64,000 nucleotides of DNA from Acidobacteriota bacterium (GTDB lineage: Bacteria; Acidobacteriota; UBA6911; RPQK01; JAJDTT01), in the NCBI GenBank assembly GCA_965217775.1, contig CBDCJH010000002.1, positions 4,512,001 to 4,576,000 on the forward strand. The letters are read 5' to 3'. Shown piece after piece: positions 3,780-53,591 of this stretch. A program made the position numbers and the translations under genes. How positions within the stretch are numbered: position 1 is the stretch's first letter; every line of letters begins with the position of its first letter. Under the pieces are notes generated by a model. That model was not told where the DNA came from and ran no database searches. It saw only the letters and a list, made by a program, of their open reading frames with translations.

Positions 3780-3829
3780 CCGAACCTCCTCTACCATGAC
3801 GCTCACGATATCCGCTCCTGCTCCGTTAA

Positions 3830-3987
3830 CAGTCCGTGGTGAAAGTCGCGCGAGCACCGAGACCGTTCCTGCGCCCGCCGGACAAGGCGCGATTCGGGTG
3901 CATACCGGGAGTATGTGCCCGAATCGCAACGCCGTCCGCCGGGATGCAGGGACGGTCGAATGCCGTGACGACTTTTGCCACGGGCTG
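3830..3987. mobile_element. 158-bp fold-back MITE, copy 1
   Basis: Imperfect terminal inverted repeats CAGTCCGTGGTGAAAGTC / GACTTTTGCCACGGGCTG. TTAA is duplicated on both sides. Near-identical to three other copies. Confidence 0.85.
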
Positions 3988-4092
3988 TTAAGACCTGCCT
4001 TTACTTCAACGCCGCCGGCTCAAAAACTACTAGCGTGAAATCTTCACCTGTGGCCCATCTCCGAGGCGGCGTAGTAGACTGGTTGCCGGGAA

Positions 4093-6585
4093 ATGCGGTC
4101 AGTAGGCGCCCTGAATTCCATCTATCCCCCGGAGCGGGTCCTTTCGGGTCCGGCCCAGTTGGCCCCCTATGAATCGGATGCGCTGACGGCGTTTCGGGAA
4201 CGGCCACTGGCGGTGGTCCTGGCCGAGTCCCAGGAGGAGGTGATCGAGACGGTACGCCTCTGCCACCGGGAGAACCTGCCCTTCGTGGCGCGAGGGAGCG
4301 GCACCAGCCTCTCGGGGGGATCGCTCCCGATCCGGGAGGGCATCATCATCGGGCTCAACCGCCTCAACCGGGTCCTGGAGTTGGATCCGGCCGAGCGGTG
4401 CGCCGTGGTGGAGCCGGGAGTCATCAACCTGGACCTGAGCGCGGTGGGAGCTCCACACGGACTCTATTACGCCCCCGATCCCTCGAGCCAATCCATCTGC
4501 ACCATCGGCGGGAACGTGGCCTTCAACTCCGGCGGAGCCCACTGCCTGCGCCACGGCATGACCAGCAACCATGTCCTGGGCCTGAAGGCGGTGCTGCCTG
4601 ACGGCGCCGTGGTGGAGCTGGGGAGCAAGAGCATGGAAGGGGTGGGACCGGACCTCACCGGGTTCTTCGTGGGTTCGGAGGGGCTCTTCGGCATCGCTCT
4701 GGAGATCACGGTTCGTCTCATCCCGAAGCCCGAGTCGTACAAGACGATCCTGGCCGCCTACAACAGTCTGGAGGCCGCCGGGGACGCCGTGGCTCGGGTG
4801 GTGGCCACGGGACTCCTCCCGGGCGCCATGGAGATCATGGACCATCTGGCCATCGAGGCAGCCGAAGCCGCAGTCCACGCCGGCTATCCCCAGACAGCCA
4901 CGGCTCTTCTCATCGTGGAGTTGGAAGGGGAGACGGCCGAGGTGGAGGCCGAGTTCCAGCTCCTGGAACCGGTGATTCAGGCTTCGGGGGCCTTCGAGAT
5001 CCGTGTCGCCCGAGATGAGGCGGAACGACTCCGGATCTGGAAGGGACGCAAGAGCGCGTTCTCGGCGGTAGGACGGCTCAGCCCCGACTACATCGTCCAG
5101 GACGGGGTGGTTCCCCGGAAGCAACTGGGGTCGACCCTGGCCGAAATCGAGATGCTGGCGCGGAAGCATGGGATCCGGGTGGCCAATGTCTTTCACGCCG
5201 GAGACGGAAATCTCCATCCCCTGATCCTGTTCGACGGCACCGAGGCGGGCGCCCTGGAGAAGGCCGAGGAACTGGCCGGCGAAATCCTGCAGATGTGCAT
5301 CCGCAGGGGGGGCTCCATCACCGGAGAGCACGGCGTGGGCATGGAGAAGCGCGAGTACCTGGCCCACATGTTCGCACCCACCGACATGGAGGTCATGAGG
5401 AGACTGCGGCGATCCATCGACCCGCTGGAGATCGCCAATCGGCGCAAGATGTTCCCCGACGGGCACGGGCGCGTCCCGGCCCCTGAGATCATCCCTTCGG
5501 ACAACGGGGCGCGGACGGCCCTGAGACCCGAATCGTTTCGGCAGGTGCAGCAGGCCGTCGCGGATCACGCGCGTATCCGGCCGCGCGGCGGCGGTACCAA
5601 GCCGGCTCTTTCCCAGCCGCCCGAGGGGATTGTCTCCCTGGACCTGAGAGGTTTGTCCGGCATCGTGGAGTACGAGCCGGAAGAGTACACCTTCACGGCT
5701 CTGGCGGGCACACCGGTAGCCGAAGTCCAGGAGAGATTGGCTCAGGAGGGACAGTATCTGCCCTTCGATCCGGTGTTGGTGCGAGCCGGAGCCACTCTCG
5801 GCGGGACGGTGGCGGCGGGGACCGGCGGCTCGGGACGTTACCGCTACGGCGGCATCCGTGACTTCCTCCTGGGGATCCGGTTCGTCAGCGGCCGCGCCGA
5901 GCTGGTGCGAGGCGGCAGCCGGGTGGTCAAGAACGCCGCCGGGTTCGATCTTCCCAAGCTCATGGTCGGCAGCCTGGGAAGGTTGGGAGTCCTGGTGGAA
6001 ATGACGTTCAAGGTCTTCCCCCTTGCCCAGCGCTGGCTGACCCTGGAAGTGGAACTGCCCGACCTCTCGCAGGCTCTGGAGGCCATACGTCGCCTGCGGG
6101 CTGCTCCCCTGGACTTGGCCGCCGTGGATCTGGAGCCTCCGGGGCGACTGCTGATACGGGTTGGAGGTCGGAGCGAGTCGGTCTCCGTTCGTCTGGACCG
6201 GGTTCGAGAGCTGGTGGGGCAGGGGGTGGAACTACAGGGGCAGGAGGAGCAGGACCATTGGGATGAGGTCCGGGAATTCGACTGGGTCCCGGCCGATTGG
6301 AGCCTGATGAAGGTCCCCATGACCACGAGCCGAATCGCCGATTTGGAAGAGAGTCTGACCTCTGTCCCGTGCCGGTCGCGCTACTGCGCCGACGGTAGCT
6401 TGGCGTGGCTGTCCTGGTCCGGACCGTTGGACCCCTTGGACTCGGCGTTGGCCCATCTGGGTCTCACCGGCCTCGTTCTACGGGGAAACGGAGACATCGC
6501 CCGCCCGGGCCGTAGGCAAGACCGGGTCTTCTCCGAAAGGATCCGGAACGCACTGGATCCGGACGGGCGATTTTCGGAGGAATAG
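4093..6585 (+). CDS. glcD: Fused glycolate oxidase subunits GlcD-GlcE (two FAD-binding domains)
   Basis: N-half [40 protein letters not shown] (GlcD). C-half [32 protein letters not shown] (GlcE). One uninterrupted 830-aa ORF. Confidence 0.88.
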
Positions 6586-7848
6586 GTGCAACACGGCATC
6601 GACGCAGAACGATACGGGCCTCAGGGCGAAGCCATGGCCCACCAGGTGAAGACGTGTGTGCACTGCGGCTTCTGTCTGCCGGTCTGTCCCACTTACAAGG
6701 ACCTGGGCCAGGAGATGGACTCACCCCGCGGACGCATCCTGCTGATGAAGGAGATGCTGGAGGGGAACCTCGAAATGGAGGAAGGTCTCCCCTACGTGGA
6801 CAAGTGCCTGGGCTGCATGGCGTGTGTCACCGCCTGCCCTTCGGGGGTCGAGTACGGCGAGTTGCTGACGCCGTTTCGAGCGCTGGCCCGGGACCGGGTC
6901 AAGGGGACTCTGCTGGATCGCCTGACCCGCCTCAGCTTTCGACTGCTCCTGCCCTTTCCTCGCCGGTTCCGAGCCGCCGCATATCTGGGCCGTCTGGCTC
7001 GCCCGTTCACCGGGATGCTCCCGGAGCGGATGGCCTCCATGCTGGAGCTGCTGCCCCGGAGGCTGCCGGCTTCTCCTCCGCTTCCGTCTGTCTACCCGGC
7101 CCAAGGGAGGCGCCGGGCTCGCGTCGCCCTATTGTCGGGTTGCGTGCAACAGGTGCTGTCGCCGTCCATCAACTGGGCCACGTTAAGGGTTCTGGCTCGT
7201 AACGGCGTGGAGGTGATCGTCCCCGCCGAACAGGGGTGTTGCGGCGCCCTGGCGCTGCACAACGGCGACGCCGAGCAAGCCCGGCGGTTGGCGGCCCACA
7301 ATTTCGAAGCCTTGCCTGACGACGTGGACGCCATCATCACCAACGCCGCCGGTTGCGGGTCCGGGATCAAGGAGTACCCGCTGCTGTTCCGGAGCCATGG
7401 CCTGGAAGAGGAGGCACGCCGCTTTTCGGCTCGCGTCCGGGACGTGAGCGTATTCTTGGACGAGCTCGGCTTGGAACGGGATCCTCCGCCCCTGCCTGCG
7501 GCAATGAAGGTCGCCTACCACGACGCCTGCCACCTGGCCCACGCCCAAGGCATCCGATCGGCGCCCCGGAAACTCCTGAAAAGGATTCCGAATCTGACCC
7601 TGATGGAGCTTATGGACGGCGAAACCTGCTGCGGCTCCGCGGGGACTTACAATCTGGAACAACCGGAGATCGCAAACCGCTTGGGGGCAAACAAGACAGA
7701 CGTTATCGAGCGATTGCAGCCGGATGCGGTGGCCGCCGGGAACGTCGGTTGCCTGATGCAGATCGAGAGCCACCTCAAGCGGCGGAACAGTCCACTACCT
7801 GTACTCCATACGGTCGAGTTGCTGGATCGAGCTTACGAATCGGCGTGA
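6586..7848 (+). CDS. glcF: Glycolate oxidase iron-sulfur subunit
   Basis: [25 protein letters not shown] and two CCG domains. Directly follows glcDE. Confidence 0.92.
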
Positions 7849-7914
7849 CTCAACGGCCGCATCGGATCCTTTTGCGGCCAGTGCGGATAGTTTTCGGAGG
7901 CAAAAGAAGAAATG

Positions 7915-8301
7915 TCACGCTACGGTGCCGCGTCCGGTCCCAACGAAGAACTCCCGCAGCACGTCCAGGGTCCCCTCGATCCGGCCCATTCGGTCCCGCA
8001 GGTCGCTGGTCTGCAACTCCATTCGATCGCGCAGGTCGCTGGTCTGTGACTCCATTCGGTCCCGCAGGTCGCTGGTCTGCGACTCCATTCGGTCCCGCAG
8101 GTCGCTGGTCTGCGACTTCATTTGGTCCCGCAGGTCGCTGGTCTGCGACTTCAAGCCGTCGATTCTCCCGGCCAAGCGAGACTCCATCCGATCAATCCGG
8201 GAACCGATCTCCACGCGCTGATTGCGAATCGTTCGGGCCGTGAAAAGGAACCCCAAGATGACTATGGCGGGCGTGATCCACTGGGCTAGTTCAGTCGGCA
8301 T
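7915..8301 (-). CDS. Small N-terminally membrane-anchored coiled-coil protein with 11-aa repeats (paralog A)
   Basis: TM segment WITPAIVILGFLF, then 5 x (M/L)xSQTSDLRDx, then C-terminal RMGRIEGTL. Confidence 0.7.
   Translation of the reverse strand: MPTELAQWITPAIVILGFLFTARTIRNQRVEIGSRIDRMESRLAGRIDGLKSQTSDLRDQMKSQTSDLRDRMESQTSDLRDRMESQTSDLRDRMELQTSDLRDRMGRIEGTLDVLREFFVGTGRGTVA
7986..8150. repeat. Coding tandem repeat, 5 x 33 bp
   Basis: Unit CCATTCGGTCCCGCAGGTCGCTGGTCTGCGACT repeated head-to-tail with no spacers. Confidence 0.95.
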
Positions 8302-8591
8302 CGGTTTCTCGTGAGAAGGGAACAGTCACCGTATTCCGCGCCGGGAACTTGTCCGGCACGCTGCGGCGAAAACTTCCTTACTCTCCGTCCCTCTTTGACT
8401 ATAACGCTTCAACCACGGAATCTGCGATGATGCCGGCCAAAAAAAGGAGCCAACCCGGAGGATGGACCTTTTGGAACGCTAGATCTCGCTTGGATCGCCA
8501 GAACAACGAATAGGGGGCAGTCACTTTCTTCCGCCGTCTCGCTCCAAACGAGTCCGGATTACGGAGGGGACAAGGGAGTTGAGCTAACTGG

Positions 8592-8798
8592 TTACACCCT
8601 CGCTTTGGGTTGGTGCACGAAAGCGAAATCCCGGATGTTGGCACGCTCCACAGCATGTTCAATAGTCATCGCGACCAAGTTTTCATTCTCGTCCAGATCC
8701 AAGTAGATGTTCTCAGACACCTCTCGCGTCTCGACGATCAGCTCCGAAGTAAACTCGATGAGAGCAGTGTCGGTATCTTCAAAGTAATTGATCTTCAT
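8592..8798 (-). CDS. DUF2283 domain protein (orphan antitoxin-like)
   Basis: MKINYFEDTDTALIEF...ETREVSENIYLDLDENENLVAMTIEHA, the typical DUF2283 pattern. Confidence 0.8.
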   Translation of the reverse strand: MKINYFEDTDTALIEFTSELIVETREVSENIYLDLDENENLVAMTIEHAVERANIRDFAFVHQPKARV

Positions 8799-8931
8799 TT
8801 CCTCGGATTGTACTCCACCGAGATCGCACTCGTTCTCCTTGCCATTCCTGCCCGTTGTCAATGGCCATCGAAAAAAATGTCAGGGTACGGCCGCTGTCAT
8901 CGAATCGAATCGGCCACCGTCACTTTCTTCC

Positions 8932-9230
8932 GCGCGTCCAGGACGTGAGCGTGTTTTTCGGCGAGCTCGATCTGGATCAGGATCCTGAACCCCTCGCGGC
9001 GGTGGACCAGTCCGCTATCTGTACTCCATACAGTCGTGTTGCTGGATCGAGCTTACCAGCCCGTGGCAAAAGTCATCACGGCATTCGACCGTCCCTGCAT
9101 CCCGGCGGACGGCGTTGCGATTCGGGCACATACTCCCGGTATGTACCCGAATCGCGCCTTGTCCGGCGGGCGCAGGAACGGTCTCGGTGCTCGCGGGACT
9201 TTCACCACGGACTGCTACGAATCGGCGTGA
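8932..9230 (+). pseudogene. Degenerate duplicate of the glcF 3' end (internally deleted, MITE-interrupted)
   Basis: 8932-8986 resembles 7432-7485. 8990-9056 plus 9215-9230 resembles 7772-7848 (...LLDRAY|ESA*). Confidence 0.85.
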
Positions 9231-9596
9231 CTCAACGCCCGCATCGGATCCTTTTGCGGCCAGAGTGAGTGGTTTTCGGAGGCAAAAGAAGAAATGTGAC
9301 GTTACGGAGCCGCGTCCAGTCCCGACGAAGAACTCCTGCAGCACGTCGAGGGTCCCCTCGATCCGGCCCATGCGGTCCCGCAGGTCGCTGGTCTGCGACT
9401 CTAAGCCGTGGATTCTCGCGGCCAAGCGAGACTCCACGCCTTCAATTCTCCCGGTCAGGCGAGACTCCATCCGGTCCATCCGGGACCCGAATCGGGATTC
9501 CATCTCCACGCGCTGGTTGCGAATCGTGCGGGCCGTGAAAAGGAACCCCAAGATCACAATTGCGGGCGTGATCCACTGGGCTAGTTCACTCGGCAT
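9015..9596 (-). CDS. Membrane-anchored coiled-coil protein, paralog B (stop lost, reads through into the MITE)
   Basis: Same N- and C-terminal regions as 7915-8301 but different 11-aa repeat content. The TGA of paralog A is TCA here (~9296-9298). Confidence 0.6.
   Translation of the reverse strand: MPSELAQWITPAIVILGFLFTARTIRNQRVEMESRFGSRMDRMESRLTGRIEGVESRLAARIHGLESQTSDLRDRMGRIEGTLDVLQEFFVGTGRGSVTSHFFFCLRKPLTLAAKGSDAGVESRRFVAVRGESPASTETVPAPAGQGAIRVHTGSMCPNRNAVRRDAGTVECRDDFCHGLVSSIQQHDCMEYR
9057..9214. mobile_element. 158-bp fold-back MITE, copy 2
   Basis: Inserted in the glcF duplicate with flanks TTAC|...|CTAC. The empty site GAGCTTACGAATC is present at 7829-7841. Confidence 0.88.
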
Positions 9597-9852
9597 CGGT
9601 TCCTCGTGAGAAGGGAACAGTCATTGTATTTCGCGCCGGGAACTTGTCCGGAGTCCAACGTTGAAAATCTCCTTACTCCCTGTCCCTCATTAGACTATAA
9701 CGCTTCAACCACGGAATCTGCGCTGATGCCGGCCAAAACAACGCCGATCCGGAGGTTGGACTTTCTTGAACGTCGAACGAATAGGGGACAGTCCCTTTCT
9801 TCCTCTTGGTATCATCCAATGGCGCTAACCCAACACGCAGAGGAGTACCGTC

Positions 9853-11076
9853 ATGACAAGCTACGTCCTTCTGAAAGATGCCAATGCGGGACGGCGGCGA
9901 AGCTGGTTCGAAGGTTCGCAGAGCGTGGGCGGAGTGCCGTCTTACGGCGGGATGTCGACGATGTCCGGGGACATGCCGCCCGAACCGGAAGTGAGCGTGG
10001 AAAACCTGGAGCCACAAGACCTGCGGGAAGCGACACGTGACCCAGGGATTCTGGATTTGGCGCGGACCATGCCGACACGTTTGATTGCACCGATGGCCTC
10101 GGACACAGCGGCAACGAAAGGGCCGACTTGGGGGATTCAGGCCGTAGGGGCTGACAAGAGCCCCGCCGATGGCCGGGACGTTCTGGTCTGCGTTCTGGAC
10201 ACCGGCATTGACGCCGATCATCAGGCCTTTACGGGGGTGGATCTGGTGCAGCGGGATTTCACTGGAACGGGTAATGGCGATGTGCAGGGGCACGGCACCC
10301 ATTGTGCGGGCACGATGTTCGGACGGGACGTGGACGGCACGCGAATCGGCGTGGCGCCGGGAGTGAGCCGAGCACTGATCGGCAAGGTATTGGGCAATAA
10401 GGGCAATGGCGAATCGGACAGGCTGTTCAACGCAATATTGTGGGCTTCGTCGTTGAATGCAAAGGTTCTCTCGATGTCACTCGGCTTCGATTTCCCCGGT
10501 CTGAGCAAGAAGCTGGCCGATAGGGGATACCCGGTGGATCTGGCGACCTCCATCGCGCTGGAGGGATATAGGGCCAATCTGCGGGTATTTGACAACCTGA
10601 TGGACTTGATTGCCAGTAAGGCAGCATTCAATGGCGGAATGGTCATCGTTGCGGCCTCGGGAAACGAGAGCAAGCGCCAGAAGAATCCGAAGTATGAGGT
10701 CAGCGCTTCGGTACCGGCAGCAGCCAAGGGAATCGTATCGGTGGGAGCACTCGGGGAAGCCGGCGACGGCTTGAACGTGGCGGATTTTTCCAACACCAAC
10801 CCGCTGCTGAGCGCCCCCGGGGTCAATGTGGTGTCGGCGAAAGCCGGAGGCGGACTGGTAGCGTTCCAAGGGACTTCCATGGCCTGTCCCCATGCGGCCG
10901 GTGTCGCGGCTCTGTGGTGGCAGAGAGTGAAGGAGGAAGCCAGCATACCGGCAACCGCGAGCGCGGTGGTGACCCGCATGCGCGCCACCTGCCGGACCGA
11001 TGTATTCCGTGCCGGTGTCGACATGCTGGACCGCGGCGACGGGCTGATCCAGGCGCCTGTTGCATCGGGTGCCTGA
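9853..11076 (+). CDS. S8 family (subtilisin-like) serine peptidase
   Basis: Catalytic triad motifs VLDTGID, HGTHCAG, GTSMACP and oxyanion ASGN. GAGGAG RBS. No signal peptide. Confidence 0.92.
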   Translation: MTSYVLLKDANAGRRRSWFEGSQSVGGVPSYGGMSTMSGDMPPEPEVSVENLEPQDLREATRDPGILDLARTMPTRLIAPMASDTAATKGPTWGIQAVGADKSPADGRDVLVCVLDTGIDADHQAFTGVDLVQRDFTGTGNGDVQGHGTHCAGTMFGRDVDGTRIGVAPGVSRALIGKVLGNKGNGESDRLFNAILWASSLNAKVLSMSLGFDFPGLSKKLADRGYPVDLATSIALEGYRANLRVFDNLMDLIASKAAFNGGMVIVAASGNESKRQKNPKYEVSASVPAAAKGIVSVGALGEAGDGLNVADFSNTNPLLSAPGVNVVSAKAGGGLVAFQGTSMACPHAAGVAALWWQRVKEEASIPATASAVVTRMRATCRTDVFRAGVDMLDRGDGLIQAPVASGA

Positions 11077-11164
11077 GCGTACGCCCGTCTAAACCCTGCT
11101 CCCGAGACGCGTAATAGTTCACGGAACAGAGAAGGGAACAGGCACCCTCTTCCCCGCTCCTCCC

Positions 11165-11300
11165 ATGTTTGAAGCCGTCGAAGAAGTCCGCTAGAACGTC
11201 GACGGTCTTGTCTTTTCCGAAGGCGAAATTCTTGTGCAACGAGAGATCCACAAGGGGAATACCGTCGTAGCGCAGCCGATCGGGGACGCCGTTGACCAAG
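11165..11300 (-). pseudogene. Degenerate fragment of the TonB receptor C-terminus
   Basis: NGVPDRLRYDGIPLVDLSLHKNFAFGKDKTVDVLADFFDGFKH aligns with 12269-12404 (NGAPYPLRYDGVPVVDLSLHKNFAMGEDKTFDVRADFFNAFNH). Confidence 0.88.
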
Positions 11301-11407
11301 AAACCGAGAAGGGGAGAGTCACCTTTTTCCGCGTCGCGCAGCCTCACAAGACTGGAGAGGACGCCGTTTCCCCGATCTGCGAGCTCCGCGCATGCGGTTG
11401 ATCGAAG

Positions 11408-11671
11408 TCAACAAGGGGGTCCTGGGCTGACTCCAATCCGAATCCCCAGACTCCCCTTGATATGGCCCATATCGATCTCCACGTTACGGAGCCTCTCATC
11501 AATTTTTTGAATTCTGTGGTCAATGCTATTGAGATACCATCCGCCCGCACCCAGCAAAAGAAGAAGTAAAACCCGGAAAATCCAGTTCACATTCAATCCC
11601 CCATTGGTTTCCCGGTGAGAAGAAAAATCCATCTTCTCTAAGTCCGGATCCTTCGGGAGTTTAGCTTTCAT
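11408..11671 (-). CDS. Small single-TM coiled-coil protein
   Basis: 87 aa from MKAKLPK. TM segment WIFRVLLLLLLGAGGWYL, then IQKIDERLRNVEIDMGHIKG. Confidence 0.55.
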   Translation of the reverse strand: MKAKLPKDPDLEKMDFSSHRETNGGLNVNWIFRVLLLLLLGAGGWYLNSIDHRIQKIDERLRNVEIDMGHIKGSLGIRIGVSPGPPC

Positions 11672-11681
11672 CGTTGTCCCC

Positions 11682-11879
11682 CTACTCTCCGTTCCGCAAT
11701 ATTGGAGGAGCCTTGGTGAATCCCTCGAAGAGCCCCTCCAATCGGGCCATCCGCTCGCGCAGGTCTGCGATGTCCTTACGAATATCCGAAATCTCACGCC
11801 GCATGGACCATTGACCGGGAACGAGGGCGCCAGCGGGCGCGATTGTGGCCACGATGATTCCGATGAGATCCGAACTCAT
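11682..11879 (-). CDS. Small membrane-anchored coiled-coil protein (LRERMARLEG type)
   Basis: MSSDLIGIIVATI... then EISDIRKDIADLRERMARLEGLFEG. GAAGGA RBS. Same C-terminal motif as paralogs A and B. Confidence 0.65.
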   Translation of the reverse strand: MSSDLIGIIVATIAPAGALVPGQWSMRREISDIRKDIADLRERMARLEGLFEGFTKAPPILRNGE

Positions 11880-12101
11880 GAATCCTTCCGACTACGGTTT
11901 GCCCTCGGCGGGTCAAAGTATCGAAACCCTACCACGACCGTGTCTGCCGGGAATACGGGCTGGTGCCGGTCTCCCGGCAAGCCCCGGCAGGTTCCTTCAG
12001 AGCCATGTGACCCGCTCCGAGTATGGCCACCGTCCCCTCAATTGATTCGGTCCCTCTATGACTGTAACGCTTCAGTCACGGAATCTGCGTGGACACCGGA
12101 C

Positions 12102-12135
12102 AAAAAAAAGGGCCAGCCCGAGGGCTGGCCCTTTT
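12102..12135 (-). terminator. Rho-independent terminator after TonB receptor 1
   Basis: AAAAAAAAGGGCCAGCCC-GA-GGGCTGGCCCTTTT hairpin with U-tracts. Decayed copies lie at ~8440-8472 and ~9735-9767. Confidence 0.85.
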
Positions 12136-12160
12136 GGAACGCTCGATTGCGCTTGGATCG

Positions 12161-15100
12161 CTAGAACGAGAAGCGGAATCCAATCTGAATCTGCCGCGCC
12201 GTCGCCGCCGAGGTTACCCGGCCAACGCCACCACTGGCATGGTTGCCGTTGGGTGCGTTGAAGATGGCGTGGTTGAAGGCGTTGAAGAAGTCCGCCCGGA
12301 CGTCGAAGGTCTTGTCTTCTCCCATGGCGAAATTCTTGTGCAGTGAGAGGTCCACGACGGGAACTCCGTCGTACCGCAGCGGATAGGGGGCTCCGTTACC
12401 CAGGGACCGCCTTGCCGCCTCGTGGCAGAAGTTGGCACCGCCGCAAAGCGACGTGTCCATGATCCGCTGGCCAGGCACACTCGGGTTCTCGATGCCGGGG
12501 GCCGTGAAGGCGCTCGTGTCATACCACCGCTCCACCGTGGCTCCGCCGCCCAAGGCCCCGTCCTTGATCCGGTCGGTGTACCGGCGCGAACGTCCGCCCT
12601 GGTTCCACAGATCGGTGCTGTAGTAGACGCGGAAGGGGGCTCCCGTAGTGAGAGTGGTGATGCTGGTGAGCTCCCAACCGCCCAGCAGGGACTTGGTGAC
12701 CCCGCCGGCGTTCCGGAAGAAAGGCAGCTCCCAGATGGCGGACATGTAGTAGGTGCTGGAGCGGTCGTGCTGCATGGGCGCCCGCAGGGCGTGGCGCTCG
12801 TAGTCACGCGACCCGGACCAGTCTCCCCAGTTGCCGTTGTAGTTCATGGCCATGGCCTTGGACCAGGTGTAACCCATGGAAAGGGCGATACCGTCGCTGA
12901 AGCGGCGCTCCAACTTGGTCTGCAGGGAGTTGTAGTTCATGCTCCCGTGCGGCCGCAGCATGGTGTTGGGAATGACCTGGGGATAAGGCCGCCGGGCCAA
13001 CTGCCCATTCCATTCACGCCCGACCTCGCCACGAGTCTCGGCCGGAATCCACTCGCGAGGCCCGGCCGTGATGGGGTCGCTGGTCAAGGTCGCGGTGCCG
13101 CCACCGATGAGAGGCACCACATACCCTTCCGGCATGGCGACGTTGAAGGGGCTGATCTCGCGGATGTGACGCCCCTGGTTGCCAACATAACCGATTTCCC
13201 ACTTGGTCCCCTGGAACAGCTCGTGCTGAATCATGAGGTTGTAGGAAAAGACTTGGCCTTCCTGCCAATCCAATTCGGAGAAGTAGCAGGTGCGGTAGTT
13301 GCTGTTGACCCGAATGCCATCCGCGTTGATCGCACCCGTATCCCGGGGCAGGTTGAGCCGTATGCCGCTGATGAGGGAGGGGACTGCCTCTCCTCGTACG
13401 GCCGGCAGGTTGATGACGCCGACGTTGGGCCGCATGACCCGGGCGCGGAGAATTCCGAACTCCTGGTCATAGGTCAGGCCCGCACCGGCGCGGAGCACCG
13501 TCCGGTTGGTCCCGAACATGCGCCAGGCCAGACCGAGCCGAGGCGCGAAGTAGCGCCACTTGGCCTTGTAACAACCGCGGTGAGGCAGGTTGGCGAAGGG
13601 AACGGCGATTCCGACGGCTCCCTGCCACTGGGCGATGTCGAAATCCTTCGGCATCATCTCTACCGGATCGATCCGGTTGGTGGCCTGGGTGTAGTCGTAG
13701 CTACAGTAGTAGTAGTCCCTGGTATAGGACCCGTTCGGGTGCCCCTCGTAGAAGGGCGGCCGCGGCTGCTCCCAGCGAAGACCCATGTTCAGGGTCAGGT
13801 TCGGACCCACCTTCCAGTCGTCGTTGATGAACCAGTTGTAATGGCTTTGGTTGAAGTGGCCCGTGTTCTCGCCGATGCCCAGCACGTTGCCGAAGACCGA
13901 GGAGGGCGTTCCCAGCATGAAATCGGCCCAGCCCTCGCCCTCGCTGACGCCCGCGAAGCTTCCGTCCGGGTTGTACTGGAGCTGGCCCGTCGAAAAGCCG
14001 TTGAAGCTGTCGCCACCGGCCGCATAGGGCGGAATCCAGTAGTAGTGGACATCCAGGTTCCGAACGTGCTCGATGCCGAACTTCAGGTAGTGGTCTCCCT
14101 TTCTCCAGGAGGCCGTGTACTTGAAGCCCAGGCCCCAGTCCGCAAGCGGCGATTCGGTGGCGCCGCCCCAACCGGTGTAGCCGGAGGGGCTCAGGCGGGG
14201 CATGTTGGCGCCGCCGCGGTTGCCGTTGGGCAGATAAACTTCCCAGTTCTGGCCGTCGTCGAATCCCAGAACCCGAGGCCAGTTGGTGTCCTCGATGGGC
14301 CGTGAGATGAGCCAGGTGAACTTCCAGATGGACTGGGTGTACTCGGTCACCAGGTTGGATCCGATGGGGTTCACCCAACTGATGCCGATCTGGTAGCCGC
14401 GGGACCGGTCCTGGAACTGGCGGTAGATGCCGTCCTGGTTGGCGCCGGGGACCCCCCACCTCCCGGTATGGGTAAAGGCGGGCGACCGCTGCCAACTGTA
14501 ACGTCCGAAGATGTTGTCGTCGTTGGAGAACTGGTGGTCGACGCGGAACGAGTACTTGTCGATCTTGGTGTTGGTGGCCCGGGGATAGGCGTAGTTGCTG
14601 GTGAGCTCACCCGCCTGATTGGGTGCCGGCGGGGGCATCAACTCCATCACCTTCTTGTAGACCGCACCCTGCATGCTGGCCGGGATCTGGTTGTTGGGGA
14701 AAGCAGCCCGCATTCCCGTTGCGTCCTCTTGGCTTCCGCTGAAGTCGAACGGATTGTAGAGCTGATTGATGGGCCCCTTGGCGCCCGATCCCGAAAAGTC
14801 GCCCTGAGTGATGGCCGTGGAAGGCGCGGTAGCGAAGCCGGCCGTCTGCAGGTTGTCGATGAACTTCTCGTAATGGCCGTGGAAGAAGGTCTTGTCCTTG
14901 AGGACGGGACCACCGATGGAGCCGCCGCCGATGTGGTAGTCCACCGGCAGTTTCTTCAGCCCCGACCGGTTCTGGAAGAAGTTGGCCGCATCCAGAGTCT
15001 CATCCCGGAAGTAGTACCAGGCATGGCCGTGGAACTCGTTGCTCCCGCTCTTGGAGAGCATGGTGATGACTGCCCCGCCCACGCGGCCGTACTCGGCCGA

Positions 15101-15808
15101 GTAGTTGTTGGTGATCACCTTGAACTCCTGCACCGTCTCCGGAGTCGGCTGCACCGTGGGCCGCTGCGTGATGTAGCCCATGTTGTTGGAACCGTCCAAC
15201 TGGATCTGGTTGGAGTGGGAATAGAGGCCGTTGAAGGTGGGGTAGCCGCCGCCGTAGGCGTAGAGGGCCGTGTAGCCGACCTCCTGCCGCTCCTGCGTTC
15301 CGCCCGTGGTCAGGTAGGCCAGCTTCACCATGTCGCGGCCCGCCAGAGGAAGATCCAGGATCTTCTTCTCTTCGATGACCGCCGCCACCTCGGCATTGTC
15401 GGTGTCGATGATGGTGGACTGTCCGGTGACCGTCACCTGCTCGGAGATGTCGCCGGGGGACATGGTGAGATCGATGCGGGATACCGTCTGAACCTCCAGA
15501 CGGACCCCCAGGGAGCGGGCCGTCTTGAAGCCGGGCAACTCCGCCGAAATGTCATAGAAACCGGGGATCAACTTGTCGATGACGTAGTCACCGCGGTCGT
15601 TGGTCACCGCCATGTGCGGCACGTTGGTCGCCGTGGCCGTGGCCGTGACTTCCACCCCGGGCACCACCGCTCCGGTCTGGTCCTTGACGGTACCCAGCAA
15701 CCGGGAAAAGGTGGCAGCTTGCCCGTAGGCCAGCGGCGCCGCCAGCGCATGAACGACGAGCACCAGGGCCGCCGTCGCCAACCATAGAGACTTGTTCTTG
15801 TAGCTCAT
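12161..15808 (-). CDS. TonB-dependent receptor, acidobacterial type (carboxypeptidase-regulatory N-domain), 1215 aa
   Basis: GTVKDQTGAVVPG, LPLAGRD, VQEFKVITNNYSAEYGR, KSGSNEFHG, DDWKV..LTLNMGLRWE, FAPRLGLAW and C-terminal RQIQIGFRFSF. Confidence 0.93.
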   Translation of the reverse strand: MSYKNKSLWLATAALVLVVHALAAPLAYGQAATFSRLLGTVKDQTGAVVPGVEVTATATATNVPHMAVTNDRGDYVIDKLIPGFYDISAELPGFKTARSLGVRLEVQTVSRIDLTMSPGDISEQVTVTGQSTIIDTDNAEVAAVIEEKKILDLPLAGRDMVKLAYLTTGGTQERQEVGYTALYAYGGGYPTFNGLYSHSNQIQLDGSNNMGYITQRPTVQPTPETVQEFKVITNNYSAEYGRVGGAVITMLSKSGSNEFHGHAWYYFRDETLDAANFFQNRSGLKKLPVDYHIGGGSIGGPVLKDKTFFHGHYEKFIDNLQTAGFATAPSTAITQGDFSGSGAKGPINQLYNPFDFSGSQEDATGMRAAFPNNQIPASMQGAVYKKVMELMPPPAPNQAGELTSNYAYPRATNTKIDKYSFRVDHQFSNDDNIFGRYSWQRSPAFTHTGRWGVPGANQDGIYRQFQDRSRGYQIGISWVNPIGSNLVTEYTQSIWKFTWLISRPIEDTNWPRVLGFDDGQNWEVYLPNGNRGGANMPRLSPSGYTGWGGATESPLADWGLGFKYTASWRKGDHYLKFGIEHVRNLDVHYYWIPPYAAGGDSFNGFSTGQLQYNPDGSFAGVSEGEGWADFMLGTPSSVFGNVLGIGENTGHFNQSHYNWFINDDWKVGPNLTLNMGLRWEQPRPPFYEGHPNGSYTRDYYYCSYDYTQATNRIDPVEMMPKDFDIAQWQGAVGIAVPFANLPHRGCYKAKWRYFAPRLGLAWRMFGTNRTVLRAGAGLTYDQEFGILRARVMRPNVGVINLPAVRGEAVPSLISGIRLNLPRDTGAINADGIRVNSNYRTCYFSELDWQEGQVFSYNLMIQHELFQGTKWEIGYVGNQGRHIREISPFNVAMPEGYVVPLIGGGTATLTSDPITAGPREWIPAETRGEVGREWNGQLARRPYPQVIPNTMLRPHGSMNYNSLQTKLERRFSDGIALSMGYTWSKAMAMNYNGNWGDWSGSRDYERHALRAPMQHDRSSTYYMSAIWELPFFRNAGGVTKSLLGGWELTSITTLTTGAPFRVYYSTDLWNQGGRSRRYTDRIKDGALGGGATVERWYDTSAFTAPGIENPSVPGQRIMDTSLCGGANFCHEAARRSLGNGAPYPLRYDGVPVVDLSLHKNFAMGEDKTFDVRADFFNAFNHAIFNAPNGNHASGGVGRVTSAATARQIQIGFRFSF

Positions 15809-16392: not shown

Positions 16393-19300
16393 CTAGAACG
16401 AGAAGCGGAATCCGATCTGAATCTGCCGCGCCGTCGCCGCCGAGGTTACCCGGCCCACCGCCGAAGACGAATGGTTTCCGTTGGGTGCGTTGAAGATGGC
16501 GTGGTTGAAAGCGTTGAAGAAGTCCGCCCGGACGTCGAAGACCCTCTCTTCTCCGAGGGCGAAATTCTTGTGCAGCGAGAGATCCACGACGGGAACACCG
16601 TCGTACCGCAGCGGATAGGGGGCACCGTTGCCCAGGGCCCGCCTTGCCGATTCGTGACAGAAGCCGGCTCCGCCGCAAAGCGACGTGTCCATGATCCGCT
16701 GGCCAGACACGTTCGGGTTTTCGACGCCGGGGGCCGTGAAGGCGCTGGTGTCATACCACCGCTCCACCGTGGCTCCGCCGCCGAGATTCCCGTCCCGGAT
16801 GCGGTCCGTGTAACGGCGCGACCGGCGACCCTGGTTCCACAGGTCGGTGCTGTAGTAGACCCGGAAGGGGGCACCGGTGGTGAGGGTGGTGATGCCGGTG
16901 AGCTCCCAACCGCCCAGCAGGGACTTGGACAGTCCGCCTGCGTTCTGGAAGAAGGGCAGCACCCAGATGGCGGACATGTAGTAAGTGCTGGAGCGATCGT
17001 GCTGCATGGGCGCACGCAGGGCGTGGCGCTCATAGTCGCGCGATCCGGACCAGTCGCCCCAGTTGCCGTTGTAGTTCATGGCCATGGCCTTGGACCAGGT
17101 GTAGCCCATGGCAAGGGCCAGACCGTCGCTGAAGCGCCGCTCCAGTTTGGTCTGCAGGGAGTTGTAGTTCATGCTCCCGTGCGGCCGCAGCATGGTGTTG
17201 GGAATGACCTGAGGATAGGGCCGACGGGCCAACTGGTCCGTCCAGGCACGGCTGGTTTCCGTGCGATTCTCGGCCGGAATCCACTCGCGAGGCCCGGCCG
17301 TGATGGTGTCGCCGGTCAGCGTGGCAGTGCCTCCTGCGACGAGAGGAACCACGTACCCTTTCGGCATGGCCACGTTGAAGGGGCTGATCTCGCGGATGTG
17401 GCGTCCCTGGTTGCCGACGTAGCCGATCTCCCACTTGGTCCCCTGGAACAGCTCGTGCTGAATCATGAGGTTGTAGGAGTAGACCTGTCCTTCCTGCCAA
17501 TCCAACTCGGAAAAGTAGCAGACGTAATAGTTGCTGTCGACCAGCACTCCATCCGCATTGACGTTACCCCTCTGACGGGGAAGGTCGATCCGTTTTCCGG
17601 TGATGAGTTCCGGGTACTCGTATCCCCGCGTTGCGGACAAACTGATGACGCCGGCACTCGGCCTCATGGTCCGAGCTCTGAGGATGCCGAACTCCTGATC
17701 GTAGGTCAGGCCGGTGCCGGCGCGGAGCACGGTCCGGTTGGTCCCGAACATGCGCCAAGCCAGACCGAACCGGGGAGCGAAGTAGCGCCACTTGGCCTTG
17801 TAGCAACCGCGGTGAGGAAGGTTCTCAAAGGGAACCGCGATCCCGTCGGGCCCCTGCCACTGGGCGATGTCGAAACCCTTGGGCATCATTTCCACCGGAT
17901 CGATCCGGTTCGTGACCCGGCTGTAATCGTACGCGCAGTAGTAATAGTCGGTGGTATACGACCCGCTGGGATGCCCCTCATAGTAGGGTGGCCGCGGCTG
18001 CTCCCAGCGAAGGCCGATGTTCAGGGTCAGGTCCGGACCCACCTTCCAGTCGTCGTTGATGAACCAATTGTAATGGCTTTGGTTGAAGTGGCCCGTGTTC
18101 TCGCCGATTCCGAGCACGTTGCCGCTAACCGCGGAGGGCGTTCCCAGCAGGAAGTCGGCCCAGCCCTCGCCATAGGTGACGCCGGCGTATTTTCCTTCGG
18201 GGGTGTACTCGAGCTGGCCCGTGGCAAAGCCGTTGAAGGTGTCGGATCCGTTTCCGTACTCCGGAATGTAGTAGTAGTGGACGTCCAGGTTCCGGACGTG
18301 CTCGAAACCGAACTTCAGGTAGTGGTCTCCCTTCCTCCAAGAGGCCGTGTACTTGAAGCCCAGGCCCCAATCCGCCAGCGGCGATTCCCTGCCGCCGCGA
18401 TAACGGGTGTAGCCGTCGGGCTGCAGGCGGGGCATGTTGGCGCCGCCCCGGTTGCCGTTGGGCAGATAGACCTCCCAGTTGTGGCCGTCGTCGAATCCCA
18501 GCACCCGCGGCCAGTTGGTGTCCTCGATGGGCCGTCCGATCAGCCACGTGAACTTCCAGATGGACTGGGTGTACTCGGTCACCAGGTTGGAGCCGATGGG
18601 GTTCACCCAGCTTATTCCGATCTGGTAGCCGCGGGACCGGTCATAGAAATAACGGTAGATGCCGTCCTGATTGGCGCCGGGGATTCCCAGATCCCCGGAA
18701 TGCGCGAACGTGGGCGAGCGTTGCCAACTGTAACGTCCGAAGATGTTGTCGTCGTTGGCGAACTGGTGGTCGACGCGGAACGAGTACTTGTCGATCCGGG
18801 TGTTGGTCGCCCGGGGATAGGCGTAGTTGTTGGCGGTCACGCCCGACTGGTTGGGGGCCGGAGGGGGCATCAACTCCATCACCTTCCTGTAGACCGCGCC
18901 CTGCATGCTGGCCGGGATCTGGTTGTTGGGGAAAGGAGCCCGCTTGCCGGTTCCTTCGGCGCGGCTTCCGGTGAAATCGAACGGATTGTAGAGCTGATTG
19001 ATGGGCCCCTTGGCGCCCGCGCCCGAAAAGTCGCCCTGGGTGATGGCCGTGGAAGGCACCGTGGCGAAGCCGGCTTGGTTCAGGTCGTCGACGAACTTCT
19101 CGTAATGGCCGTGGAAGAAGGTCTTGTCCTTGATGATGGGACCGCCGATGGAGCCGCCGCCGATGTGGTAATCAACCGGCAGCTTCTCCCGCAGGGACCG
19201 GTTCGCGAAGAAGTTGTTCGCATCCAGAGTCTCGTCCCGGAAGTAGTACCAGGCATGGCCGTGGAACTCGTTGCTCCCGCTCTTGGAGAGCATGGTGATG

Positions 19301-20040
19301 ACCGCCCCGCCCACGCGGCCGTACTCGGCCGAGTAGTTGTTGGTGATGACCTTGAACTCCTGCACCGTCTCCGGCGTCGGCTGCACCGTGGGCCGCTGCG
19401 TGATGTAGCCCATGTTGTTGGAGCCGTCCAACTGGATCTGGTTGGAATGCGAATAGAGGCCGTTGAAGGTGGGATAGCCGCCGCCGTAGGCGTAGAGGGC
19501 GGTGTAGCCGATCTCCTGCCGCTCCTGCGTTCCGCCCGTGGTCAGGTAGGCCAACTTCACCATGTCGCGGCCCGCCAGAGGAAGATCCAGGATCTTCTTT
19601 TCTTCGATGACCGCCGCCACCTCGGCATTGTCGGTGTCGATGATGGTGGACTGTCCCGTGACCGTCACCTGCTCGGAGATGTCACCGGGTTCCATGACGA
19701 GATCCACCCGGGATACGGTCTGGACCTCGAGACGAATGCCCAGAGAGGCCGCCTTCTTGAAGCCGGGCAACTCCGCCGAGACATCGTAGAAACCGGGGAT
19801 CAACTTGTCGATGACGTAGTCACCGCGGTCGTTGGTCACCGCCATGTGCGGGATGTTGGTCGCTGTGGCCGTGGCCGTGATCTCTACCCCTGGCACCACC
19901 GCTCCGGTCTGGTCCCTGATGGTTCCCAGCAACCGGGAAAATGTGGCCGCCTGTCCGTAGGCCAGCGGCGCCGCAAGCGCATGCACCACGAGCACCAGAC
20001 ACGCTGCCGCCAACCACAGAGACTTACTCCTGTAGTTCAT
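16393..20040 (-). CDS. TonB-dependent receptor, tandem paralog 2 (1215 aa)
   Basis: Colinear with 12161-15808. Start MNYRSK (ATG 20040, AAGGAGG RBS) gives the same 3648-nt length. Confidence 0.93.
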   Translation of the reverse strand: MNYRSKSLWLAAACLVLVVHALAAPLAYGQAATFSRLLGTIRDQTGAVVPGVEITATATATNIPHMAVTNDRGDYVIDKLIPGFYDVSAELPGFKKAASLGIRLEVQTVSRVDLVMEPGDISEQVTVTGQSTIIDTDNAEVAAVIEEKKILDLPLAGRDMVKLAYLTTGGTQERQEIGYTALYAYGGGYPTFNGLYSHSNQIQLDGSNNMGYITQRPTVQPTPETVQEFKVITNNYSAEYGRVGGAVITMLSKSGSNEFHGHAWYYFRDETLDANNFFANRSLREKLPVDYHIGGGSIGGPIIKDKTFFHGHYEKFVDDLNQAGFATVPSTAITQGDFSGAGAKGPINQLYNPFDFTGSRAEGTGKRAPFPNNQIPASMQGAVYRKVMELMPPPAPNQSGVTANNYAYPRATNTRIDKYSFRVDHQFANDDNIFGRYSWQRSPTFAHSGDLGIPGANQDGIYRYFYDRSRGYQIGISWVNPIGSNLVTEYTQSIWKFTWLIGRPIEDTNWPRVLGFDDGHNWEVYLPNGNRGGANMPRLQPDGYTRYRGGRESPLADWGLGFKYTASWRKGDHYLKFGFEHVRNLDVHYYYIPEYGNGSDTFNGFATGQLEYTPEGKYAGVTYGEGWADFLLGTPSAVSGNVLGIGENTGHFNQSHYNWFINDDWKVGPDLTLNIGLRWEQPRPPYYEGHPSGSYTTDYYYCAYDYSRVTNRIDPVEMMPKGFDIAQWQGPDGIAVPFENLPHRGCYKAKWRYFAPRFGLAWRMFGTNRTVLRAGTGLTYDQEFGILRARTMRPSAGVISLSATRGYEYPELITGKRIDLPRQRGNVNADGVLVDSNYYVCYFSELDWQEGQVYSYNLMIQHELFQGTKWEIGYVGNQGRHIREISPFNVAMPKGYVVPLVAGGTATLTGDTITAGPREWIPAENRTETSRAWTDQLARRPYPQVIPNTMLRPHGSMNYNSLQTKLERRFSDGLALAMGYTWSKAMAMNYNGNWGDWSGSRDYERHALRAPMQHDRSSTYYMSAIWVLPFFQNAGGLSKSLLGGWELTGITTLTTGAPFRVYYSTDLWNQGRRSRRYTDRIRDGNLGGGATVERWYDTSAFTAPGVENPNVSGQRIMDTSLCGGAGFCHESARRALGNGAPYPLRYDGVPVVDLSLHKNFALGEERVFDVRADFFNAFNHAIFNAPNGNHSSSAVGRVTSAATARQIQIGFRFSF

Positions 20041-20317
20041 TCCTGTTCCCTCCTTGAAGCTCAAAAGGCTTCGAACTTCCGGCCGTTCATACCGGAAGAA
20101 CGCTCCGTGAGCGCTAATGTTGAGAAGTTTGTACAGGATTCGATTTGGGGAGTCAAACAATAAGGAGATAACGATTTAGGACCGAGTCAGACGGGCTCGG
20201 ACGGCCGCGGCAGGATAATTATTCGTTGGCTTCTTCGCCAACCTGACGCCTCCTCTTTTCTCTTTCCTCACCTCTCGTGGGCACCTTCTTTACTCTTTCA
20301 AATGATCCAGTCACCCT

Positions 20318-33848: not shown

Positions 33849-34006
33849 CAGCCCGTGGCAAAAGTCATCACGGCATTCGACCGTCCCTGCATCCCGGCGG
33901 ACGGCGTTGCGATTCGGGCACATACTCCCGGTATGCACCCGAATCGCGCCTTGTCCGGCGGGCGCAGGAACGGTCTCGGTGCTCGCGGGACTTTCACCAC
34001 GGACTG
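33849..34006. mobile_element. 158-bp fold-back MITE, copy 3
   Basis: TCAA target duplication on both sides. Lies 8 bp after the tRNA-His CCA. Confidence 0.88.
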
Positions 34007-41523: not shown

Positions 41524-41593
41524 CTGCAGTTCCTGACTCCCATCTTGCCCGATCCGGGCTCGCGGCGGTATATTGGCCGTCTCCAAGGCCCGG

Positions 41594-41751
41594 CAGTCCG
41601 TGGTGAAAGTCTCGCGAGCACCGAGACCGGTCCTGCGCCCGCCGGACAAGGCGCGATGAGGGAGCATACCGGGAGTATGTGACCGAATCGCAACGCAGTC
41701 CGCCGGGATGCAGGGACGGTCGAATGCCGTGAGGACTTTTGCCACGGGCTG
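41594..41751. mobile_element. 158-bp fold-back MITE, copy 4 (most diverged)
   Basis: Same termini and length as the other copies, with several internal substitutions. The target duplication is imperfect (CCGG/CCAA). Confidence 0.85.
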
Positions 41752-41798
41752 CCAAGGTCAACCGTCCCGCGTAGAAGGGCGACTGGGGATCCGCACCT

Positions 41799-53515: not shown

Positions 53516-53591
53516 TGGTGGAGGTAATCGGACTCGAACCGACGACCCCCTGCTTGCAAAGCAGGTGCTCTTCCAGCTGAGCTATACCCCC
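53516..53591 (-). tRNA. tRNA-Ala(TGC)
   Basis: GGGGGTATAGCTCAGCTGGAAGAGCACCTGCTTTGCAAGCAGG...GGTTCGAGTCC...CTCCACCA, 76 nt. Confidence 0.95.

Follow-up and report, generated by a model that had tools for sequence, protein, structure and literature searches.

What divides the short interval between the glycolate oxidase gene glcF and a large outer-membrane receptor gene of an Acidobacteriota bacterium into genes, gene relics and copied gene ends, set apart from one another by nearly the same 25 nucleotides (nt)? The question was raised by a preliminary description of a 64,000-nt stretch (the window: positions 4,512,001 to 4,576,000 of contig CBDCJH010000002.1, assembly GCA_965217775.1), which saw in this interval a cargo "accordion", a gene-capture platform devoid of its own integrase, where an enzyme encoded elsewhere, for example an HUH transposase associated with repetitive extragenic palindromic (REP) sequences, would act at a short motif. 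Comparison with seven related genomes answers part of it: the interval is a long-lived, clade-specific variable island on a fixed backbone, and the motif is specific to that island, conserved across the eight species and placed at many of the structural junctions. As for what the motif does, the reading favoured here, tentatively and with somewhat less than even confidence, is that of a locus-specific port for insertion and breakage, served by an activity encoded elsewhere.

A motif confined to one island

A scan of a genome collection with the GlcF protein returned 35 loci, among which seven (L001 to L007) belong to close relatives with 88-95% amino-acid (aa) identity, the next best reaching 66%. 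All seven are metagenome-assembled genomes of Acidobacteriota, and six of them are single contigs of 5.2-6.2 Mb. The motif itself, whose consensus is GAAAAGGGGACAGTCACTTTCTTCC (25 nt), has seven copies in the window, all of them on the + strand:

8313-8337, + strand: motif copy mA1, 12 nt upstream of the start codon of the coiled-coil gene CC1 and on the strand opposite to that gene
8508-8532, + strand: motif copy mB1, directly adjoining the stop-codon region of a relic of the receptor gene
8907-8931, + strand: unnamed motif copy, followed at its 3' edge by a fragment from within glcF
9608-9632, + strand: motif copy mA2, found by the matrix scan
9779-9803, + strand: motif copy mB2, 49 nt upstream of the start codon of the S8 peptidase gene and forming one conserved block with the S8 leader in the eight genomes
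11129-11153, + strand: motif copy mC, 53 nt past the S8 stop codon
11306-11330, + strand: motif copy mC', closing a fragment of the receptor gene

The preliminary description had counted eight such motifs in the same orientation. Seven stand, whereas the supposed partial copy at 12025 scores below 8 bits and, by eye, has no more than 10 consecutive nt in common with the 8907 copy. In the 64-kb window, a 21-nt pattern allowed up to 3 mismatches has 5 matches, against 0.01 expected, and a 15-nt core allowed up to 2 has 6, against 0.35 expected; no copies were found elsewhere in the window. About five of the window copies can be regarded as independent, since the pairs 8313/9608 and 8508/9779 arose by block duplication.

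Is the motif equally restricted in the relatives? With a matrix made from the window copies alone, each of the seven yields 2-3 copies, all on the + strand and all inside the interval, and 28 unrelated loci give just 3 weak matches. A second matrix, built from 22 copies and used with a cut-off of 8 bits, was applied to the islands of the eight genomes (27,100 nt) and to the sequence outside them (185,708 nt): there are 29 matches within the islands, 28 of them on the + strand, and 0 outside. Because 22 of the 29 matches had trained the matrix, the count inside the islands is partly circular, and the zero outside is the informative part. Positions 6-8, 10-17, 20, 22, 23 and 25 are kept in 18-22 of the 22 copies. 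By synteny, three classes of copies can be told apart: 12 nt upstream of the start codon of the coiled-coil gene; in the gap between the relic stop codon and the S8 gene, 49 nt ahead of the S8 start codon; and ~40-55 nt past the S8 stop codon. A literature search with the motif sequence matched 35 papers and gave, among the matches listed, only unrelated eukaryotic or biotechnology topics, probably through chance oligonucleotide matches.

A fixed backbone and its insertions

Apart from the motif copies, the interval and its two borders comprise the following features in the window:

6586-7848, + strand: glcF, glycolate oxidase Fe-S subunit (Pfam CCG and Fer4; NCBIfam GlcF equivalog E=3e-100), the conserved left border of the island
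7915-8301, - strand: CC1, a small gene with an N-terminal hydrophobic segment and a coiled coil (open reading frame, ORF, with weak Pfam coiled-coil matches only)
8384-8504, no strand assigned: relic T'1, with the last 7 nt of the receptor gene, its stop codon, its terminator and 60 nt downstream (82.6% to 12047-12167)
8592-8861, - strand: DUF2283 gene (Pfam DUF2283 E=3e-14), whose probable start is an internal ATG near 8798
8933-9056, + strand: pieces of a glcF pseudogene (8933-9002 resembles 7432-7501, 77%; 8999-9056 resembles 7779-7836, 90%), the equivalent of 7502-7778 (277 nt) being gone
9057-9215, + strand: insertion of a miniature inverted-repeat transposable element (MITE), 159 nt, bounded by inverted repeats at its termini (CAGCCCGTGG... 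/ ...CCACGGACTG) and by a target duplication of 3-4 nt, interrupting the second block
9217-9596, - strand: CC2, second copy of the coiled-coil gene, its stop codon lost and its ORF extending to 9015
9682-9772, no strand assigned: T'2, second relic of the receptor 3' region (80% to 12050-12108), inside the 81% block that pairs 9368-9772 with 8085-8478
9853-11076, + strand: S8 (subtilase) peptidase gene (Pfam Peptidase_S8 E=2e-37)
11166-11306, - strand: C-terminal coding fragment of the receptor gene, between two motif copies
11408-11879, - strand: a pair of overlapping small ORFs, one of 65 aa and one of ~87 aa when begun at an internal ATG, both with a hydrophobic segment and a repeat of coiled-coil type
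12047-12167, - strand: authentic 3' end of the receptor gene, intrinsic terminator (12106-12135) and downstream region (repeat and terminator searches)
12161-15808, - strand: gene for a TonB-dependent-receptor-like outer-membrane protein of 1215 aa (Pfam OMP_b-brl_4 E=5e-173 and CarboxypepD_reg), the conserved right border

The gene on the right, taken at first for TonB, actually encodes a receptor-like outer-membrane barrel. From glcF to this gene, the backbone found in all eight genomes consists of the coiled-coil gene on the opposite strand, the relic of the receptor 3' end (in 7 of the 8), the S8 gene, small coiled-coil genes, the real terminator and the receptor gene, and the motif occupies three places on it: between the coiled-coil gene and the relic, between the relic and S8, and between S8 and the small genes. 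The minimal form is that of L007, and the length of the island ranges from 2577 to 4435 nt across the eight aligned genomes, which agrees with the earlier expectation that the interval varies between relatives. What had been regarded as cargo, however, needs to be sorted anew. The S8 gene stands in the same place in 8/8 genomes (86-95% aa identity) and the terminator relic in 7/8, being missing only from L002, where a truncated tnpB of the IS605 type stands instead; both are therefore old fixtures and not cargo, and the relic and its adjoining motif copies are older than the split of these species. The two small membrane proteins each have a hydrophobic segment, and small coiled-coil genes are part of the shared backbone: an ortholog of the coiled-coil gene adjoins glcF in all seven relatives, and orthologs of the 65-aa ORF (sm65) and of the longer ORF (sm129) occur in six and in four of them, respectively. 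It is the DUF2283 gene that proves variable, being found in the window, L002 and L004 only, before S8 in the first two and after S8 in the third.

How do the filled and the empty states of this island differ? An exact pair is provided by a 177-nt indel that runs from motif to motif, in which the window holds one motif and the receptor fragment, L007 is without them, and the flanks otherwise align. In the window and in L002, the DUF2283 cassette (8533-8906) is enclosed by motifs; relatives without the cassette have one good motif there, flanked by the terminator relic and by the same sequence on the S8 side, and L004 has the gene past S8, where two motifs likewise enclose it. Furthermore, three independent duplications start 0-4 nt past the TTCC of the motif, each with a different partner: glcF position 7432 in the window, the 3' end of the coiled-coil gene (position 7907) in L003, and glcF at ~7645, on the far side of S8, in L004/L005. 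All three have the collinear repeated blocks and the single novel joint of a segmental duplication. Half-motif scars lie beside a full copy in L003 (11931-12031, tandem right halves) and L004 (11915-11968, tandem left halves), and L002 carries a motif in a hybrid context, with a left flank of the type found at the coiled-coil gene start and a right flank of the post-S8 type. Many of the structural differences begin or end at the oriented, island-confined motif, as had been proposed; a crude count puts 39 of 256 clusters of alignment end points within 12 nt of a motif, against 12.6 expected.

Most of the insertions particular to one lineage lie at a motif. Relative to the minimal backbone of L007, a tally made by the author from the alignments gives nine lineage-specific insertions at a motif of the second or third class, seven of which have a motif copy on both sides:

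Insertion 1, window and L002: DUF2283 cassette
Insertion 2, window: duplicated block of glcF piece, CC2 and relic
Insertion 3, L003: duplicated block of coiled-coil gene and relic
Insertion 4, L001 and L006: filler of 27-30 nt between a good and a degenerate motif copy
Insertion 5, window: receptor fragment
Insertion 6, L003: ~445 nt between the motif copies at 13846 and 14318
Insertion 7, L002: ~510 nt
Insertion 8, L005: block of glcF piece and coiled-coil gene
Insertion 9, L004: composite of glcF piece, partial relic, motif, DUF2283, coiled-coil gene and motif

Part of the inserted DNA is of local origin. Comparison of the window with itself bears out the duplicated block of glcF end, coiled-coil gene and terminator, as pairs of 81-93% identity (7779-7836 with 8999-9056, 89.7%; 7834-8019 with 9216-9401, 91.9%; 8085-8478 with 9368-9772, 81.2%; 8505-8532 with 9776-9803, 92.9%), and adds a glcF-internal piece that had escaped the earlier reading (7432-7501 with 8933-9002, 77.1%). 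The region downstream of the receptor gene does occur three times, namely, the real one at 12047-12167 and the relics at 8384-8504 (82.6%) and 9682-9741 (80%); the terminator hairpin is kept by the real copy alone (12106-12135), is decayed in T'1, and no terminator was called there. The recurrence of a receptor C-terminal fragment is likewise confirmed, since 11166-11306 is ~82% identical to both receptor genes (81.6% to 12270-12409 and, over 11166-11298, 82.0% to 16502-16634), the second one being a paralog of the border gene, at 16393-20160. The ancestry of these modules is mosaic: the CC1 module of the window is 84-88% identical to those of L001, L002 and L006 and the CC2 module 87% to that of L007, CC1 and CC2 being mutually only 81-84% identical, whereas the glcF of the window is closest to L007 right up to its end. 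Exchange between lineages has therefore contributed. A crossover inside glcF importing the CC1 module was considered as well and not seen, as glcF stays nearest L007.

And where does the motif come from? The copy beside the relic sits exactly at the expected place of the last codons of the receptor, and the consensus aligns end to end with those codons (12167-12197, within the top 1.2% of background windows), where the homology of the T' relics stops. It is thus possible, as far as such an alignment can suggest, that the motif is a relic of the receptor gene end. Among 50 full-length receptor homologs, none ends like the translation of the motif (all end in ...F or ...W), and 1 of 27 right flanks of the motif is clearly receptor-like (shuffle p = 0), two more having p = 0.017; on these grounds, the idea that the motif encodes the usual final beta-strand of a receptor paralog was rejected.

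Known systems and competing readings

Does the motif belong to a class of sites already described? Its features differ from those of att-site accretion, integrase-less cassette arrays, dif modules and the minimal mobile elements of Neisseria (a term used in PMC1538595) alike. Integrase-less "cis-mobilizable" elements are flanked by att repeats and accrete in tandem at one att site. The island resembles them in that direct repeats of one short site, all in one orientation, part successive modules, in that the array starts next to a gene 3' end that is itself duplicated, and in that filled and empty states differ by one site and one module (the 177-nt indel and the DUF2283 cassette); unlike them, it has no integrase gene or relic among the island ORFs scanned, its modules, fragments of neighbouring genes among them, measure only 27-1320 nt, the edge of the site is in some joints linked to non-site DNA, and there is no arm-spacer-arm layout. 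The attC sites of integrons are structured imperfect palindromes of 57-141 nt that fold as hairpins. With CALIN, integron cassette arrays without an integrase (PMC4889954), the island shares cassette-like pieces parted by a recurring site with no integrase gene nearby. It departs from them in a motif of 25 nt, asymmetric and unstructured, in the mixed orientation of its genes and in that much of the "cargo" is local pseudogene DNA. No integrase family, which a CALIN would not need, appears in 59 ORFs of the window and 12 of the flanks. Sites of the dif type consist of two 11-nt arms, partly symmetric, on either side of a 6-nt centre, and in Acinetobacter plasmids their orientation alternates. 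The dif modules and Xer-dependent elements (PMC6449649) are comparable as integrase-free modules bounded by a ~28-nt site, used by a host enzyme encoded elsewhere. In contrast, the symmetry of the motif reaches at most 4.09/8 with a 6-8-nt spacer, its orientation is single and there is no GC-skew switch (no sign change around 8-12 kb in the 64-kb window, a short view for a terminus test); a replication terminus or dif site was set aside for the lack of both the switch and a dif-like layout. Minimal mobile elements of Neisseria bring different gene content between conserved flanking genes and need no internal site. The island, too, has variable content between the same two flanking genes, and its mosaic ancestry suggests homologous exchange, but its pieces are bounded by a specific motif and some of its content arose by local duplication. 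Finally, IS91/ISCR elements capture DNA in a one-ended manner, and both CRISPR (clustered regularly interspaced short palindromic repeats) adaptation and casposons duplicate a repeat by staggered integration. The island resembles these in one end fixed at a specific sequence and the other variable, in a site duplicated around the inserted fragment and in the 27-30-nt filler between copies in L001 and L006; however, no HUH, Cas1 or casposase gene is present in the sequence examined, no Cas family was found in the window, and the pieces are irregularly spaced (27-1320 nt, with motif start-to-start spacings of 195 to 1350 nt, hence no regular CRISPR-type period). The motif matched none of the known element ends tested.

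According to the favoured reading, the asymmetric 25-nt motif, in its one orientation, would act as a port of insertion and breakage. Foreign or neighbour-copied DNA would land at it with a motif copy on each side, inserted segments could be lost again through motif-to-motif recombination, and breaks at the 3' edge would be mended by copying nearby paralogous DNA, which would leave the copies of the glcF and receptor gene ends. The recognising activity, for which the sequence examined has no gene, would act in trans and be that of a site-specific recombinase, a nickase or a targeted nuclease; in an enzyme-free version, the port would be a fragile, protein-bound site. What speaks for this reading is the flanking by motif copies, the exact filled/empty pair, the fixed joint at the 3' edge with variable partners, the half-motif scars and the hybrid flanks in L002, a pattern that, by analogy, could be expected from att-type recombination, from a staggered-cut integrase or from a site-specific nick or break followed by copying of paralogous DNA. 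Its more specific form is unlikely: a chromosomal insertion port without an integrase gene of its own, where an enzyme from elsewhere cuts the 3' edge or recombines and arbitrary DNA, foreign genes as well as pieces of the neighbouring ones, is taken up with the site on each side. The candidates for that enzyme would be an att-type recombinase, a site-duplicating staggered-cut integrase, an HUH nickase or a guided nuclease.

A considerable number of observations weigh against such a port. Most of the end-point clusters (217 of 256) are away from any motif; the tnpB relic of L002 is joined 15 nt off it, and neither the MITE junctions, nor the 277-nt internal deletion in the glcF piece, nor a 263-nt insert in L002, nor the swapped upstream region in L003 are at the motif, the post-S8 region of L001 and L006 having no motif at all. 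The three ancient motif classes are 76-84% mutually identical (by the author's count), the same range as other old duplicates, so neutral decay from one duplication epoch fits, and orthologous copies of the motif are roughly as divergent as the sequence that flanks them. All duplicates detected by self-comparison are 77-93% identical and must therefore be read as a slow fossil record with no sign of a recent event or of current activity, and not as an active "accordion". No recombinase, integrase, transposase, HUH or reverse-transcriptase family was found in the 59 window ORFs, nor in 12 upstream-flank ORFs of L007 and L004, and, as there is no second motif locus in ~186 kb, a dedicated trans-acting system would be left without any other visible substrate. 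Insertions may also be tolerated only in two short spacers that happen to hold motif copies, and a regulatory role, too, would fit the copy ahead of S8, which continues into a conserved leader.

Could the island then be a passive patchwork, made by tandem duplication, unequal or illegitimate recombination, exchange between lineages and hits by mobile elements, with the motif as a neutral relic that was duplicated along with a unit of receptor 3' end, terminator and small coiled-coil gene and that merely supplied microhomology? This is possible, though held to be doubtful. The age of every repeat, the equal divergence of the motif classes and the mosaic ancestry of CC1 and CC2 agree with it, as do the presence of recombinable paralogous modules (T and T', coiled-coil and small genes), a crossover for the 177-nt indel that can be drawn inside the shared 8-9 nt GAGAAGGG, the overlap of the window junction with glcF by a short CGCG and the relic origin suggested by the alignment to the last receptor codons. 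Nevertheless, three duplications have the same 0-4-nt joint with different partners, each with a chance of ~0.006 by a rough post hoc estimate on a minimal island of ~2600 nt; unequal crossing-over of resident copies cannot create foreign DNA flanked by motifs (the DUF2283 cassette and the ~445 nt in L003); and the motif-like peptide is carried by 0/50 receptor homologs. In addition, repeats of 25 nt at 76-92% identity are poor substrates for homologous recombination. A regulatory element, i.e., a protein-binding or promoter site of the S8 and coiled-coil units that is kept by selection while insertions are tolerated only between transcription units, is quite improbable. Position-specific conservation of the motif, its distance of 49 nt to the S8 start codon in both the window and L007, the single conserved block that it forms with the S8 leader (an extended -10-like box, TGgTATCAT, in 6/8 genomes, and a ribosome-binding site, the left side being unconserved) and the location of another class 12 nt upstream of the coiled-coil start codon would all suit it; but the orientation is single in spite of S8 and the coiled-coil gene being on opposite strands, the best dyad reaches 4.45/8, post-S8 copies lie between convergent genes with no gene to regulate, no promoter was called at the motif in a consensus scan, L004 and L005 do not retain the -10-like box, and the motif copies on both sides of pseudogene fragments are left unexplained.

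The enzyme class that had first been proposed fares worse than either. Same-orientation short repeats between cassette-like pieces, in a clade where mobile elements are present (the MITE family of the window and the IS605-type tnpB relic of L002), may bring to mind REP-like repeats handled by an HUH transposase of the RAYT (REP-associated tyrosine transposase) type or an integron-like attC array, yet this reading is very improbable. There is no stable hairpin: among 14 folds of the motif with 10 nt on each side, z < -2 was obtained only for the two strands of one copy, and with 40-nt flanks all 14 z-scores lay between -1.6 and +2.6. Dyad symmetry is weak, the motif is a mere 25 nt and is not dispersed (0 matches in 185.7 kb outside the islands), the S8 gene runs opposite to the other genes, no intI or Y1 transposase family is found in the window, no RAYT (Y1 HUH) gene in the window or the loci scanned, and the sole mobile-element gene in the island ORFs scanned is the truncated tnpB. 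Lacking a hairpin, dispersal, much symmetry and a recombinase nearby, the motif is not a REP/RAYT, integron or dif site. Misassembly, by which strain variants would have been joined into a false tandem repeat, is scarcely credible. The CC modules of the window resemble different relatives, as those of a two-strain chimera could, but the extra glcF piece is a decayed pseudogene (77% over 70 nt, without 277 nt and with the MITE inside) that is more diverged than any ortholog pair (82-99% in 150-nt glcF windows), and comparable duplications and motif-bounded inserts exist in the single-contig relatives, six of which share the architecture.

Should the motif prove to be a genuine target of recombination or cleavage, it would be a cassette-type capture site with a new kind of site, in a phylum whose mobile-DNA mechanisms have barely been studied, and the idea is testable, because the eight genomes already provide filled and empty states. 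If it is only a relic, the locus would be a clear example of a variable island shaped by short repeats and by the 3' end of a dead gene.

Relics, mobile elements and neighbouring genes

The best-kept part of the receptor relics is the ~50 nt past the terminator (TGACTRTAACGCTTCARYCACGGAATCTGCG; 12047-12105, 8394-8445 and 9690-9741), 94% identical between the two relics and 83% to the real copy, which may have a function, for example as the promoter of small genes downstream. As an explanation for the receptor fragment, a diversity-generating retroelement or silent cassette was discarded, since the window has no reverse transcriptase and the fragment is equidistant from both receptor genes.

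The coiled-coil gene CC1 holds tandem repeats of 33 nt (11 aa; ~7986-8153), whose number is unequal between the two copies (7986-8153 and 9368-9479), and the protein length varies from 90 to 154 aa among the relatives. In CC2, a minus-strand TGA has become TCA at ~9297-9299, by which the ORF (9015-9596, - strand) gains ~94 extra codons across the glcF relic and the MITE; for annotators, this read-through ORF, the gene-end copies and the long spurious ORFs of the interval are a warning, as they are not genes. The small ORFs at 11408-11879 resemble distant paralogs of the coiled-coil gene, repeats tying 11747-11777 to its repeat, and no Pfam family was assigned to the small genes of the interval. 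The S8 gene, which adjoins the small membrane coiled-coil genes, encodes a peptidase with no obvious signal peptide by eye and with partial matches to mycosin-type TIGR03921 (E=2e-28, far under the cut-off) and PADLOC "subtilase" (E=3e-18); the latter being merely partial, a defence-system reading of the cargo was rejected. In a search of a plasmid collection, the S8 gene alone was matched (2 records, 65-66%), and phage records gave no match to the island.

The MITE belongs to a family of ~160 nt with four copies in the window (9057-9215 and 33849-34006, and, on the - strand, 3827-3992 and 41593-41759), 93-99% identical, with a palindromic interior and target duplications TTAC/CTAC, TCAA and TTAA. 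One copy lies 9 nt past tRNA-His, and relics occur in the island of L003 (~13920-13996) and upstream of glcDE in L003 and L007. Its terminal repeats are unlike the motif, which was therefore dismissed as the end of a MITE or insertion sequence. The tnpB of L002 (11638-12423, - strand) is frame-broken and truncated at both ends, with a Cas12f1-like TNB domain (E=9e-26) and OrfB_IS605; it stands in the place of the first motif as well, and neither its ends nor a guide-RNA region have survived. A link of the motif to this relic was rejected, in view of the truncation and of the distance of its motif-side joint, and the motif as a guide-RNA target (5 nt and 20 nt, with cleavage at the far end) is so far only a numerical coincidence. 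Among other candidates set aside, a structured RNA or DNA element found no backing in Rfam (two tRNAs only in the window) or in folding, which was unremarkable; one copy, 9783, was called a weak terminator-like hairpin, and the consensus was not. A standard promoter was excluded by the consensus scan (2 sites against 1.2 expected, neither at the motif), and sigma-54 and extracytoplasmic function (ECF) sigma factor patterns, tried by eye, did not fit.

Regarding the surroundings, the GC content of 8001-12000 is 0.576-0.591, versus 0.61-0.67 across most of the window. An ORF of 830 aa (4093-6585, + strand) with two FAD_binding_4 stretches and one FAD-oxidase_C ends at the glcF start and looks like a GlcD-GlcE fusion. 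Farther away, an ORF for an AAA_21/AbiEii-type ATPase (52243-53469, - strand) lies beside tRNA-Ala (53516-53591), where the GC content is lower (0.58-0.59), and may be a small acquired island.

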